Shown piece by piece: positions 4,488 to 23,919 of a stretch of 64,000 nt of DNA. This DNA is from a phage. The position numbers were made by a program, and so were the translations under genes. The stretch lies in the NCBI GenBank assembly GCA_012628545.1, contig GCA_012628545.1_3035.1. One strand, written 5' to 3'. Every line of letters begins with the position of its first letter. Position 1 is the stretch's first letter. The notes beneath the pieces are model-generated. The model saw nothing but the letters and a program-made list of their open reading frames with translations, was not told the DNA's origin and ran no database searches.

Positions 4488-6752
4488 TCATAATTTACAG
4501 GATGAACAATCTTCAGCTTTTGGAGTTTCTATTTCATAATCATCAGTACCAGAACCATCACGGGTATTATGATAATAGAAATTTTTTCCGCCAAAATACC
4601 AAAAATACAAAAGGTCATCAATCATTATTGACATTGGAACCTTTCCTTTTGGAAAAATCTGTGGGTCATAATATGTATTCGCCGAAGCTGATTGACAAAC
4701 CCATTTCAGCATAATAGCTACCTGCGTAAGATAAGGTTTATTACCTTTCTTAGCTAATTTCCATGTATAATCATAGAGGTCTATGTTATGCTCAATATTG
4801 GGCACGACTTGATTAAAGGAGCCCTCTTTTGATTCTTTAACAGAGACTGGTCCACGTGGAGGCTCGATACCGTTTGTACTGTTAGAAACTTGGGAAGATG
4901 ACTCACATGGCATAAGTGCTGATAATGTGCTATTACGGATGCCAAAGAGCTTAAGGTCTTCCCGCAGCGACGACCAGTCACAAACGTATTTTGGAGCTGC
5001 GATTTGGTCAATCTTTTTATTGTACCAGTCGATAGGTAATTCGCCTCGAGACCAACGAGTGTCTGAATAATATTCGCAAGGTCCTTTTTCTTTGGCGAGC
5101 TTAATGGATGCTTTAATGAGTCCATACTGTAATCTCTCAAATAGTTCATGTGTTAAATCGTTAGCATCTTCATAAGAAGCAAAGTTACTTGCCAGCCAAG
5201 CTGCATAGTTAGTAACACCTACACCGAGGTTACGACGCTTTTTAGCTTTTTCTGCTTCAGGAACTGGATATCCTTGGTAATCCAAAAGATTATCAAGAGC
5301 ACGAACTTGAACTTCTGCTAATTCATTAATTTTATCTTGGTCTTGCCAATCGAAGTTATCCAGCACAAATGCAGATAACGTGCACAATCCAATTTCAGCA
5401 TCGGGGCTATTCACATCATTTGTTGGAATAGCAATTTCACAGCACAAGTTACTCTGACGAATAGGTGCCTTTTCACGAATAAATGGAGTATAGTTATTCG
5501 TATTATCAATGAACTGTACATAAATCCTTGCTGTTCCTGAGCGTTCAGTCATGAGCAATTCAAATAGTTCACGGGCTTTAATACGCTTTTTACGAATATT
5601 AGGGTCTTTTTCTGCTGCTTCGTATAATTCACGGAAACGGTCTTGGTCTTTAAAATAAGAATAATAAAGCTCGCCACCCATTTCATGCGGACTGAACAAA
5701 GTAATGTAATCGTTCTTTCCGAATCGTTCCATCATCAAATCATTCAGCTGAACACCATAATCCATATGACGAATGCGGTTTTCTTCTACGCCTTTGTTAT
5801 TTTTCAAAACGAGAAGATTTTCAACTTCCAAATGCCAAATAGGATAATAAGCAGTAGCAGCACCGCCACGAATTCCACCCTGTGAGCATGATTTAACTGC
5901 AGTCTGAAAATGTTTCCAAAAAGGAATAACACCGGTATGGCGTACTTCACCCATGCCAATCTTAGAACCTTCGGCACGAATCATACCAACGTTAATACCA
6001 ATTCCAGCGCGTTTAGAGATATATTCAACAATTGAAGCGGAAGCCTTATTGATAGACTTCAGCGAATCACCTGCCTCAATAACAACACATGAACTAAACT
6101 GTCGAGTCGGAGTACGACAACCAGCCATAATAGGAGTTGGCAGTGAAATCTGTCGAGTAGATACTGCTTCATAAAAACGGATAACATGTTTTAATCTATC
6201 AACAGGTTCATCTTGATGCAATGCCATTCCAATAGTCATAAATGCAAACTGTGGAGTTTCATAAATTTGACCAGTGGTTTTATCTTTAACTAGATATTTT
6301 TCTTTTAATTGCATCGCCCCGGAATAAGTAAATTCCATATCCCGCTCGTGCTTAATTTTTGATTCTAAAAATGTAATTTCTTCTGCTGAATATTTTGACA
6401 ATAATTCAGGGTCATATTTACCTGCATTTACACAATAAGAAATATGGTCAATAAATGAACGCGGTTCATACTGCCCATAAACATGCTTACGAAGAGCAAA
6501 CATTAAACAACGTGCAGCTACATATTGGTAATCAGGCTCTTCAACCGAAATAGAATTCGCAGCGGCCTTAATGACAATAGTCTGAATATCATCAGTGGTC
6601 ATTCCATCACGGAGATATGATTTAATATTTTCATATAATTCATAAGGATCTACAGATGTTCCTTCAGCTGCCCAAGATAAAACTTTAATAATTTTTTGCG
6701 GGTCAAAGCTCTGAGAAACACCACTACTTTTGATAACATTAATTAATTGCAT
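4488..6752 (-). CDS. nrdA: ribonucleotide reductase large (alpha) subunit
   Basis: 754 aa, N-terminal ATP-cone region, conserved catalytic cysteines (NLCCEI context); same length as T4 NrdA. Confidence 0.95.
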   Translation of the reverse strand: MQLINVIKSSGVSQSFDPQKIIKVLSWAAEGTSVDPYELYENIKSYLRDGMTTDDIQTIVIKAAANSISVEEPDYQYVAARCLMFALRKHVYGQYEPRSFIDHISYCVNAGKYDPELLSKYSAEEITFLESKIKHERDMEFTYSGAMQLKEKYLVKDKTTGQIYETPQFAFMTIGMALHQDEPVDRLKHVIRFYEAVSTRQISLPTPIMAGCRTPTRQFSSCVVIEAGDSLKSINKASASIVEYISKRAGIGINVGMIRAEGSKIGMGEVRHTGVIPFWKHFQTAVKSCSQGGIRGGAATAYYPIWHLEVENLLVLKNNKGVEENRIRHMDYGVQLNDLMMERFGKNDYITLFSPHEMGGELYYSYFKDQDRFRELYEAAEKDPNIRKKRIKARELFELLMTERSGTARIYVQFIDNTNNYTPFIREKAPIRQSNLCCEIAIPTNDVNSPDAEIGLCTLSAFVLDNFDWQDQDKINELAEVQVRALDNLLDYQGYPVPEAEKAKKRRNLGVGVTNYAAWLASNFASYEDANDLTHELFERLQYGLIKASIKLAKEKGPCEYYSDTRWSRGELPIDWYNKKIDQIAAPKYVCDWSSLREDLKLFGIRNSTLSALMPCESSSQVSNSTNGIEPPRGPVSVKESKEGSFNQVVPNIEHNIDLYDYTWKLAKKGNKPYLTQVAIMLKWVCQSASANTYYDPQIFPKGKVPMSIMIDDLLYFWYFGGKNFYYHNTRDGSGTDDYEIETPKAEDCSSCKL

Positions 6753-20118: not shown

Positions 20119-23100
20119 ATGGCTACTTTAAAACAAATACAATTTAAAAGAAGCAAAACCGCAGGTGCACGTCCTGCTGCTTCAGTATTAGCCGAAGGTG
20201 AATTGGCTATAAACTTAAAAGATAGAACAATTTTTACTAAAGATGATTCAGGAAATATCATCGATTTAAGCATTTCTGCTGGTGGTAATATCAGTGGTAA
20301 TATTACTCAAACTGGTGATTATACACAGACTGGAAAATTTAATTTAATTGGTCCGCAAATTGTAGAAAGCGGTGGATATATTGAGTTTAATTATCGTACT
20401 ATTGGAAGTGGGGCTTGGTCTGGTCAACACACTGCAAAAGCTCCAATTTTTGTAGATTTAAGCTCAGCTACTTCCACATCTGAATATAATCCTATAATTA
20501 AACAGCGCTTTAAAGATGGAACTTTTTCATTAGGTACTTTAGTTTCTGAAGGTTCGTTGAAGATTCATTATATCAATGAATCTGGCGATTCGAAATATTG
20601 GACGTTTCGACGTGACGGCGGATTTGTTGTTGACGGTGGAGGTTTAGCAGTATCAGGAGGTAGTATAACTACATCTGGAAATATTGCAGCTCTCGGAAAT
20701 ATTACTTCGCCTCAGATTAATACTAAAAATATTATTTTAGATACAAAAGCATTTGGACAATACGATTCGCAATCATTAGTTCAATATGTTTATCCTGGAA
20801 CAGGTGAAGAAAATGGTATAAACTATCTTCGTAAAGTTCGAGCTAAATCAGGCGGAACCATTTACCATGAAATCGCTTCAGCTCAAACCGGTAAAAATGA
20901 TGAAATTTCTTGGTGGACCGGAAATACACTTACTACTAAATTAATGGGTCTTCGTAATGATGGCGCAATGGTATTACGTCGTTCACTTGCTATTGGCACA
21001 ATTACCACTGACGAAAATACTAACAACTATGGTTCTCCTACTCCAATGGGAGAAAGATATATTGCTTTGGGCGATGCTGCCACTGGTTTAAAATACATTA
21101 AGCAGGGTGTTTATGATTTAGTAGGTAATTGGAATTCTGTTGCTTCTATTACTCCTGATAGTTTCCGTAGTACTCGTAAAGCGTTATTTGGACGTTCAGA
21201 AGACCAAGGCGGAACCTGGACAATGCCTGGAACGAACGCTGCCTTTTTATCAGTTCAAACACAGGCTGATGAAAACACTGCTGGAGACGGCCAGACGCAT
21301 ATTGGCTATAACTCAGGCGGAAAAATGAACCACTATTTCCGTGGTAAAGGCAAAACTAATATTAATACTCAGGAAGGTATGGAAGTTAATCCGGGTATTT
21401 TGAAATTGGTAACTGGCTCTAATAATGTAATGTTTTATGCTGATGGCGGTATTACATCTGTTAAGCAGCTTTCAATATATAATGGCATATATTTAGCAGC
21501 TAATAATTCTACTGCTGGGCTAACATTCGCTCCAACTACTACAATTGATGGCACTAAGCAAATTTTGTGGGAAGGCGGTACTCGTGCTGGTCAGAATAAA
21601 AGCTATGTAACTGTTAAAGCATGGGGTAATTCATTTAACGCATCTGGCGATCGTAATCGTGAAACGGTTTTTGAAGTAGCTGATGGACAAGGATATTATT
21701 TTTATTCACAGCGTGTGGCTCCAAGTGGCTCTGAAACTACTGGGCCTGTTGTAACCCAGTTCAATGGACAAGTTAATGCTAGAGGAAGTATTATTACTGA
21801 CGGAAGTTTTAAAGTTAATGGATTAAGCACTTTAGTCGGTAATGTTACCATGTCTAATGGTTTGTTTGTCCAAGGTGGTTCTTCTATTACTGGACAAGTA
21901 AAAATTGGTGGAACTGCTGATGCATTAAGAATTTGGAATGCCGAATACGGTGCTATTTTCCGTCGCTCAGAAACAGCATTACATATTATCCCGACTCCTA
22001 AAGATGCCGGTGAAAGTGGTGGAATAAGTAATCTCCGCCCACTTAGTATTAGTCTTAATAATGGTATGGTACAAATGCGCCATTCTGTTACGTTAGGCGA
22101 TGATGGCGCTGGCGGTAATATGATTACTGTGGACAACGATACCAAACTTGTTGTTGTTACTAGTCATAGTCGTATTTCTCCTAATTACCGTATGCAGGTA
22201 GGACAAGCAGCTTATATTGATGCTGAATGTACTGACACCGTTCGCCCGGCTGGTGCAGGGTCTTTTGCTTCACAAAATAATGAAAACGTTCGTGCTCCGT
22301 TCTATATGAATATTAATCGCACAGATACAAGTACTTACGTTCCTATTTTAAAACAACGTTATGTTCAAGGAAATAGCTGTTATTCTTTAGGTACTTTAAT
22401 AAATGGCGGTAACTTCAGAGTTCATTATCATGAAGGTGGAGACGGAAGTTCAACAGGCGCAATTATAAAAGATTTAGGCTGGGAATTTACACGTTCTGGT
22501 GATTTTATATCTCCTAAGCGCATTTCTGCTGGGGGTTCAGTTTATTTAGGTACAGACGGTAACATTACTGGTGGTTCTGGTAATTTTGCCAACTTAAATA
22601 GTACAATTGAATCACTTAAAACTGATATTGTTTCAAGTTATCCTATTGGAGCTCCGATTCCTTGGCCTACTGATACACCTCCTGAAGGTTATGCCATAAT
22701 GGAAGGTCAAACATTTGATGTTGGCTTGTATCCTAAGTTAGCTGCGGTGTATCCTTCCGGCTCTCTGCCTGATATGCGCGGGCAAACTATCAAGGGTAAA
22801 CCATCTGGGCGTGCTGTATTAAGTACAGAAGCAGACGGTGTTAAGTCACATAGTCATAGTGCAAGTGCATCAAGCACGGATTTGGGTACTAAGACCACAT
22901 CAAGCTTTGACTATGGTACTAAGACGACAAGTAGTTTCGACTATGGTACTAAGACCAGTAATAATACTGGTGCTCATACGCATAGTTTGAGCGGTTCCAC
23001 AAACACCGCCGGTGCGCACAGCCACACAAGCGCTCTTTATGCGGGAAGTAACAACTCTCCTGGTACTGGTTCTATAAGAGGATCCGCCGGTGGTGGTAAT

Positions 23101-23340
23101 ACGCTTGGAACTTCTTCTTCTGGGGCACATTCGCACTCTATATCTGGTACTGCTGCAAGCGCAGGCGCTCACGCGCATACTGTTGGTATTGGTGCTCATA
23201 CCCATACTGTAGGTATCGGTGCTCATACCCACACGGTAGCAATTGGCTCGCATGGTCATACTATCACTGTAAATAGTACAGGTAATACAGAAAACACGGT
23301 TAAAAACATTGCTTTTAACTATATTGTTCGTTTAGCATAA
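20119..23340 (+). CDS. 37: long tail fibre distal subunit gp37 (receptor-binding tip)
   Basis: 1073 aa; Gly/Ser/Thr-rich beta-structure; C-terminal His-x-His repeats ([28 protein letters not shown]) typical of the T4-type metal-binding needle domain. Confidence 0.95.
22885..22965 (+). repeat. 30-bp tandem repeat (2.7 copies) within gene 37
   Basis: GGTACTAAGACCACATCAAGCTTTGACTAT / GGTACTAAGACGACAAGTAGTTTCGACTAT / GGTACTAAGACC...; encodes [10 protein letters not shown] x2. Confidence 0.8.
23170..23260 (+). repeat. 27-bp tandem repeats encoding His-x-His motifs in gene 37
   Basis: GCTCATACCCATACTGTAGGTATCGGT-like units encoding GAHTHTVGI repeats. Confidence 0.75.
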
Positions 23341-23344
23341 GGAG

Positions 23345-23360
23345 AGGGGCTTCGGCCCCT
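23345..23360 (+). other. UUCG-loop hairpin between genes 37 and 38
   Basis: AGGGGC-TTCG-GCCCCT; not followed by a U-tract, so more likely an RNA structural/stability element than a terminator. Confidence 0.5.
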
Positions 23361-23367
23361 TCTAAAT

Positions 23368-23919
23368 ATGAAAATCTATCATTATTATTTTGACACTAAA
23401 GAATTTTACAAAGAAGAAAATTACAAACCTGTTAAAGGTCTCGGTCTTCCTGCTCATTCAACAATTAAAAAACCTTTAGAACCTAAAGAAGGATACGCAG
23501 TTGTATTTGATGAACGTACTCAAGATTGGATTTATGAAGAAGACCATCGCGGCAAACGAGCATGGACTTTTAATAAAGAAGAAATTTTTATAAGTGACAT
23601 TGGAAGCCCGGTTGGTATAACCTTTGATGAGCCCGGCGAATTTGATATATGGACTGATGACGGTTGGAAAGAAGACGAAACATATAAACGCGTTTTAATT
23701 CGCAATAGAAAAATTGAAGAATTATACAAAGAATTTCAAGTTTTAAATAATATGATTGAAGCTTCTGTCGCGAATAAAAAGGAAAAATTCTATTATAAAA
23801 ACCTTAAGCGATTCTTTGCTCTTTTAGAAAAGCATGAGCATTTAGGTGGTGAATTTCCCGCATGGCCTGAAAAAGAACGGAAACCTTGGTATAAGCGTTT
23901 ATTCAAGCATTACGTATAA
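23368..23919 (+). CDS. 38: gp38 tail fibre assembly chaperone (T4 type)
   Basis: 183 aa MKIYHYYFDTKEFYKEENYKPVKGLGLPAH...; size and sequence of the T4-type (chaperone) gp38 rather than T2-type adhesin. Confidence 0.85.
   Translation: MKIYHYYFDTKEFYKEENYKPVKGLGLPAHSTIKKPLEPKEGYAVVFDERTQDWIYEEDHRGKRAWTFNKEEIFISDIGSPVGITFDEPGEFDIWTDDGWKEDETYKRVLIRNRKIEELYKEFQVLNNMIEASVANKKEKFYYKNLKRFFALLEKHEHLGGEFPAWPEKERKPWYKRLFKHYV

Follow-up and report, generated by a model that had tools for sequence, protein, structure and literature searches.

The window, as we call the whole 64,000-nucleotide stretch of phage DNA that was analysed, is a segment of a Tequatrovirus genome, and over its first 25 kb it shares 97.2% identity with phage GiZh. 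The genes for gp34, gp35, gp36, gp37, gp38, the holin t and asiA follow one another in the same order as in T4. Gene 38 lies directly downstream of gene 37:

20119..23340, forward strand: gene 37, long tail fibre distal subunit including the adhesin tip (open reading frame of 1073 amino acids)
23368..23919, forward strand: gene 38, T4-type tail fibre assembly chaperone of 183 amino acids (181/183 identical to T4 gp38)

Gene 37 has 99.5% nucleotide identity to the GiZh gene, and residues 814-1073 of its product match the structure of the T4 gp37 tip, 2XGF (chain residues 2-242; phmmer, E=4.5e-97), which is attributed to Bartual et al. 2010 in PMC9603124 and PMC6957217. The gp38 protein is a chaperone of the T4 type and not the gp38 adhesin of T2 and T6, and therefore the adhesin is the tip of gp37 itself. 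An earlier reading made from the sequence alone (the sequence-only reading) had given gp37 as 1073 residues against about 1026 for T4 (1026 in NC_000866), gp38 as a T4-type chaperone of 183 residues and the gp37 tip as the adhesin, and all three statements are borne out.

In T4 the chain passes through the collar (residues 811-881), along the needle (882-931) and into the head (932-959), then runs back down the needle (960-1009) and re-enters the collar (1010-1026) (PMC9603124). Because the chain reverses direction at the head, the needle is six-stranded (PMC9603124, PMC12609058), and seven iron ions are held along it by His-x-His motifs (PMC6957217). The corresponding parts of the tip in the window are as follows.

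22633..22845, forward strand: N-terminal part of the collar (knob) domain, residues 839-909 (T4 811-881), from Pfam and the T4 limits (PMC9603124) transferred by alignment
22846..23025, forward strand: ascending arm of the needle, residues 910-969, 60 residues (T4 882-931, 50 residues), from the alignment to T4
22969..23010, forward strand: 14-residue His-x-His unit of the ascending arm, residues 951-964 (Pfam PF03335 at residues 948-961)
23026..23109, forward strand: head (tip) domain, about residues 970-997, the probable receptor-contacting part, from comparison of head sequences
23110..23286, forward strand: descending arm of the needle, residues 998-1056, 59 residues (T4 960-1009, 50 residues), from the alignment to T4
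23287..23337, forward strand: C-terminal strand re-entering the collar, residues 1057-1073 (T4 1010-1026), identical to T4 in protein sequence

The Pfam Collar domain (PF07484) was found at residues 844-891 (E=1.2e-10, 41.6 bits, with the cut-off at 24), where it precedes the needle, and PF03335 is the Pfam 'phage tail fibre repeat' of 14 residues. The ascending arm carries the histidine pairs H911/H913, H953/H955 and H967/H969 and the descending arm H1004/H1006, H1018/H1020, H1027/H1029, H1036/H1038 and H1045/H1047. These eight His-x-His pairs hold all 16 of the histidines of the tip, while 2000 shuffled sequences gave a mean of 1.4 pairs and a maximum of 6. There are thus three pairs before the head and five after it, where T4 has three on the way up and four on the way down, seven altogether. 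With its homology to 2XGF, its collar domain, histidine pairs in both arms, arms of matched length and gp38 alongside, the tip belongs to the collar-needle-head type. The head is unlike that of T4 and is of the same sequence type as those of F2, PD328 and AV117. An AF2 monomer model of the 260-residue tip, calculated from an alignment of 63 sequences, was poor (pLDDT 56.7, pTM 0.29), as would be expected of an interwoven trimer.

Both needle arms contain a tandem repeat. Between 19500 and 24500 Tandem Repeats Finder reported no arrays but two, both of them in frame:

22885-22957, forward strand: 30-bp tandem repeat, 2.4 copies (Tandem Repeats Finder, 83% matches, score 104)
23167-23239, forward strand: 27-bp tandem repeat, 2.7 copies (Tandem Repeats Finder, 84% matches, score 90)
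23164..23271, forward strand: four consecutive 27-bp (9-residue) His-x-His units of the descending arm (Tandem Repeats Finder and translation)

The 30-bp repeat encodes a 10-residue FDY unit at 22885-22914 and again at 22915-22944, followed by a partial third unit, GTKT. This unit forms a histidine-free spacer of the ascending arm, and T4 has one full copy of it. The 9-residue units read, in order, GAHAHTVGI, GAHTHTVGI, GAHTHTVAI and GSHGHTITV, with the general form G-x-H-x-H-x-V-x-I; T4 has three such units and lacks either the first or the second. Exact tandem repetition of a peptide extended to units of 10 residues, whereas no unit exceeded 5 in 2000 shuffles, and the repeats and the pairing of the histidines are well beyond chance. 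The in-frame 30-bp and 27-bp repeats of the sequence-only reading, with the 10-residue unit occurring twice, are therefore present as described, the 27-bp units having the form GAHxHTVGI.

The same reading had proposed that the extra length of gp37 coincides with these repeats, and this is true of less than half of it. Over a full alignment the protein is longer than T4 gp37 by a net 47 residues, of which the tip accounts for a net 19 (+10, +9, +3 and -3). The second 10-residue FDY unit gives the +10 and an extra 9-residue unit the +9, with the +3 and -3 lying in or beside the head. The other 28 residues lie outside the tip, in a divergent N-terminal block (about residues 60-200, with essentially no relationship to T4), an insert of 11 residues (about residues 652-662) and single-residue insertions and deletions. 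Compared with 2XGF, the tip has exactly one additional 10-residue unit before the head and one additional 9-residue His-x-His unit after it, so neither repeat number nor length is the same as in T4 and the claimed difference from T4 stands.

Whether the window is expanded relative to phages other than T4 is a separate matter. All 14 of the other phages whose sequences were fetched, which include members of Tequatrovirus and Mosigvirus, TuIb, the BASEL phage AdolfPortmann and the Nonagvirus PD328, have the same architecture of two 10-residue units and five descending histidine pairs (2 + 5); T4 alone has 1 + 4. The 491 phage records that matched were also sampled evenly along their ranking. Among the approximately 34 full-length rows of this sample, about 25 span 231-234 nt, which corresponds to two units, and about 9 span 201-204 nt, corresponding to one unit (T4 twice, sutha, W143, Moon and some temperate phages). 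T4 is therefore the shorter, minority form among the T-even phages. The description of the tip as 'repeat-expanded', in the sense of a departure from the norm, does not survive these counts, nor the finding that 52 of the 200 tips considered below share the architecture.

Copy number was also compared among close relatives, as the sequence-only reading had suggested. The tip spans 481 nt in the window and likewise in GiZh, S1P5QW, ECCR664, PNJ-9, ECO07P2, AV117 and JQD51; TH09 is identical over the portion in its record, and F2 spans 484 nt owing to an extra codon in the head. No variation in repeat copy number was found among the nine nearest tips. The copies within the window are themselves diverged. 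The two 30-bp copies are identical at 24/30 positions and the 6/30 differences are all synonymous, including a Ser-Ser pair encoded by TCA-AGC in one copy and AGT-AGT in the other. Neighbouring 27-bp units are identical at 21-22/27 positions among the first three, and the third and fourth share 13/27. Uninterrupted identity between repeat copies in the window reaches at most 11-14 bases. In short, the locus has neither the near-identical copies nor the differences in copy number among close relatives that would mark it as prone to slippage.

The codon differences between the copies are shared widely. The single 30-bp unit of T4 matches copy 1 at 29/30 positions and copy 2 at 23/30, and the T4 9-residue unit GDHSHSVGI is about equally distant from the first two His-x-His units of the window, A and B (19/27 and 20/27). 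The signature of copy 2, ACGACAAGTAG, recurs in F2, TuIb, LF82-41, LNA2 and AdolfPortmann, and its shorter core, ACAAGTAG, is present in PD328, so that copy-specific codon signatures are common to Tequatrovirus, Mosigvirus and a Nonagvirus. Diverged copies and a stable copy number imply that the repeats are not fresh products of slippage, and the sequences point to old, conserved modules. Units with identical DNA do occur side by side in two other phages, 348Ecol098PP (30/30) and AV122 (27/27), which suggests that duplication or gene conversion still happens occasionally in the family.

By comparing a larger set of tips we discovered that the two arms of the needle change length together. Tips were gathered by a word-indexed protein search, from 80 IMG/VR loci, from 15 phage records and by an exhaustive search of representatives clustered at 50% identity. 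The proteins listed by the word-indexed search were all of 455 residues or fewer and so included no full-length gp37. The IMG/VR loci contained no close T-even relative, the best of them being prophage-type fibres at 60-72% identity, and they added diversity rather than close comparisons. Arm span was measured from the first to the last histidine pair in each arm. The head was located by walking back from the last pair; in tips with two units the FDY spacer (42 residues) exceeds the gap between the histidine pairs on either side of the head. This gave 203 unique tips, of which 200 could be parsed.

Every one of the 200 obeys the same rule, with an ascending span of 32+10a+14b and a descending span of 18+9a+14b residues (r = 0.997), where permuted descending spans fitted on average for 50 tips and at most for 68 of 200. 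The commonest classes, written (a,b), are (0,1), the T4 class, with 69 tips, (1,1), that of the window, with 52, (1,0) with 41 and (0,0) with 27; the rarer ones are (2,0) with 7, (2,1) with 2, and (1,2) and (4,0) with 1 each. Discrete length classes with between 5 and 10 histidine pairs thus coexist. No unique tip among the 200 has unequal arms, that is, an extra unit in one arm only. Three tips, P0024, P0050 and P0216, appeared to be exceptions, though each has one degenerate histidine pair (AHTY, ANTH, or lost altogether) and these are artefacts of parsing rather than unequal arms. Relatives of the query are over-represented in the sample and common ancestry links many of the tips, so that the 200 represent far fewer independent events; they still cover at least seven classes, none of them unbalanced. 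The length of the head is only weakly correlated with that of the arms (r = 0.22). A pairing rule, in which the needle changes length by matched units, 10 residues up with 9 down or 14 with 14, is well supported by these data.

These observations suggest how the two repeats may fit together. Each chain of the trimer would run up the needle, through a small head and back down, with the 30-bp repeat supplying the 10-residue spacer of the ascending arm and the 27-bp repeat the 9-residue His-x-His unit of the descending arm. The covariation of the arms and the topology of the chain suggest that the two kinds of unit face one another in space, so that one extra copy of each would keep the arms equal (60 and 59 residues, against 50 and 50 in T4). 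Since the arms co-vary in length, an extra pair of units is likely to add one layer to the needle. The needle in the window would then be physically longer than that of T4, and each extra histidine pair would be expected to bind a metal ion, the metal-cored needle having eight His-x-His sites instead of seven. The choice of receptor would be made by the head of the F2/AV117 type that sits between the arms.

The tip also appears to be a mosaic. Breakpoints were defined against six comparators: upstream of about 22893 the window is closest to AV116, 22894-23110 is identical at the DNA level to F2, 22975-23207 is nearly identical to the siphovirus PD328 and 23185-23324 is identical to TuIb and AdolfPortmann. 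These blocks of identity place the junctions inside FDY copy 1 and inside the His-x-His units A and B. Exchange at conserved motifs has been published (Tetart 1996, 1998, as summarised in PMC3157838), and breakpoints within both repeat arrays fit such an exchange of cassettes, which is suggestive. The repeats probably act mainly as structural modules and as conserved patches of homology at which phages exchange head cassettes.

The sequence-only reading had taken the repeats to be the region that defines specificity. The repeats lie in the needle, whereas in T4 mutations have mapped the contacts with the receptor to the head (residues 932-959; PMC5221442, PMC6957217, PMC9603124), which also contains the residues important for binding LPS and OmpC (PMC5221442, PMC6957217). 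Of the phages with a related head, AV117, in which it is nearly identical, depends for infection on OmpC and the waaC-dependent LPS core, as experiments have demonstrated (PMC10844046). The whole tip of AV117 is identical to that of the window at 181/189 positions. Five of the substitutions are in the head, and the two phages may therefore bind different receptors; by analogy with AV117, our best guess would be that this phage uses OmpC together with the LPS core.

Taken together, it is very probable that the tip belongs to an old, stable and widespread needle-length class, one layer longer than that of T4, in which the head chooses the receptor. The repeats had instead been read as a tract prone to slippage, which would mean a recent expansion from a T4-like ancestor with continuing changes of copy number that alter host range. 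Such an account could draw on the differing unit numbers of the classes within the family (a = 0, 1, 2 and 4), on the DNA-identical neighbouring units of 348Ecol098PP and AV122, and on Tetart et al. [quoted passage not shown] For the window it seems highly unlikely. Its copies differ at 6/30 and 5-6/27 positions and carry signatures found across genera, neither the nine nearest tips nor any of the 14 fetched phages departs from its architecture, and one slippage event by itself would unbalance the arms, a state seen in none of the 200 tips. The duplication described by Tetart and colleagues in 1996 was reportedly a tandem one that included the specificity-determining segment between the His motifs, and in the window the head is present as a single copy, only needle units being repeated. 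The residues that set specificity in T4 map to the head, outside the repeat units (PMC5221442, PMC6957217), which again argues against slippage in the repeats as a route to a new host range.

It is also very doubtful, if a shade less so, that the length of the needle is itself what has been selected, an extra layer allowing the fibre to reach its receptor through a thicker LPS or O-antigen so that the classes track the surface of the host. The discrete classes of 5 to 10 histidine pairs and the loose tie between head and arm length would agree with this, as would the isolation of the closest relative, GiZh, on an O111 strain, and a scaling of histidine pair number with needle length and function has been speculated upon (PMC12609058). 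However, the same class is found in phages isolated on K-12 (AdolfPortmann, teqhad) or on strains with O-antigen and in prophage side fibres, and a single layer is small next to a fibre of more than 1000 residues. A combined account, with a quantised needle of 5 to 10 metal layers that tunes reach through the LPS and spreads by exchange of arm-head-arm cassettes instead of by slippage, is somewhat easier to entertain and we still regard it as unlikely. We therefore favour the old and stable needle-length class.

The sequence-only reading was thus largely right about what is there, while its interpretation as an expanded, slippage-driven specificity region is mostly unsupported. The tip represents a needle-length class that is common in a well-known type of fibre tip and is already in public records; with an identical tip of common architecture in GenBank, the window itself matters little. 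That the number of histidine pairs may scale with the length of the needle has been remarked before (PMC12609058), and the explicit two-arm pairing rule is a modest by-product of the present analysis that may help in engineering fibres. As the arms always co-vary in the 200 tips, resized or chimeric gp37 or Stf tips should keep their arms matched, and the conserved repeat units, apparently the sites of natural exchange, would be the best places for junctions.

Of the known relatives, GiZh gp37 (KT184311 / NC_054903, ANZ51423.1) has the same 1073 residues and an identical tip including both repeats, and differs by four substitutions, all in the N-terminal third; we found no mention of phage GiZh in the literature. 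The tip of T4 gp37 shares the collar-needle-head order, the histidine pairs in both arms and the last 50 residues, which are identical, and its gp38 is 99% identical. T4 gp37 differs in having one fewer 10-residue and one fewer 9-residue unit, a head unrelated in detail and a different N-terminal shaft block. The gp37 proteins of TuIb (described by Montag et al. 1990, record X55191) and AdolfPortmann/Bas44 have the same 2 + 5 architecture, though their head is larger and of a different sequence, with 55 residues between the flanking histidine pairs as against 37 here. AV117 (OR352947), a Mosigvirus and so of another genus, has the same repeat numbers and head type. The side tail fibres of lambdoid, P2-like and 9g-like phages have a homologous tip that follows the same arm-length rule, but they differ in their unrelated shaft, in the type of virion and in the Tfa-type assembly protein encoded downstream. 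The Stf of the Nonagvirus PD328 shares the head cassette of the window, with 3 mismatches over 22975-23174.

The head of the gp37 tip, the variable segment between the needle arms (23026..23109), is almost identical in the window phage, a T-even phage, and in the side tail fibre of the Nonagvirus PD328, a 9g-like siphovirus. When the two were compared over 22975-23207 there were just 3 mismatches in 22975-23174, while the sequence flanking the head cassette was far more diverged than the cassette itself. Judging from these sequences, this is an adhesin cassette that has recently been exchanged between unrelated virion types.

In phage 348Ecol098PP adjoining repeat units are identical at the DNA level (30/30, positions 326-385 of record L092), as they are in AV122 (27/27, positions 631-684 of record L095). 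The adjoining units of most other compared phages, the window included, are not DNA-identical. This pattern suggests that duplication or gene conversion has occasionally taken place in recent times inside the repeat arrays. Amongst the sampled phage-record matches, the fibres of Felixounavirus and related Salmonella and Shigella phages match only the inner ascending arm, at query residues about 41-77 (FDYGTK...HTHS). What these fibres have in common with the gp37 tip is therefore the needle units, and not its collar-proximal part.

Most of the difference in length between this gp37 and that of T4 is accounted for by two features of the shaft combined, as seen in the alignment with T4 gp37:

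20296-20720, shaft block, ~aa 60-200, hardly alignable to T4
~22072-22104, 11-residue shaft insert near aa 652-662

Both are also present in the gp37 of GiZh.

Other features within gene 37 appear to be spurious:

22900-23259, minus strand, 119-aa antisense ORF overlapping the His-rich repeat region
4534-4546, 4740-4750 and 5992-6003 of the GiZh GenBank record (L002), 'attP' and 'StbAB binding' annotations

The antisense ORF shows no sign of being a gene and seems to be a side effect of biased codon content in the gp37 repeats. In GiZh, the annotated 'attP' site and the 11-13-base 'StbAB binding' repeats seem to be short matches arising by chance, not genuine features.

Two further elements lie at the junction of gene 37 and gene 38, the hairpin in the gap between the gp37 stop and gp38 start codons:

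23340-23344, AGGAG, Shine-Dalgarno-like, 5' of the hairpin
23346-23359, GGGGC-UUCG-GCCCC tetraloop hairpin

Together with the gp38 ATG at 23368 they give the order AGGAG, hairpin, start codon across 23340-23370. This is the layout known from gene 38 of T4, where a hairpin moves a distant ribosome-binding site near the start codon. T4 has the same element, minus one C. The 40-nt stretch bearing the hairpin has a folding energy of -15.4 kcal/mol (z = -3.2).
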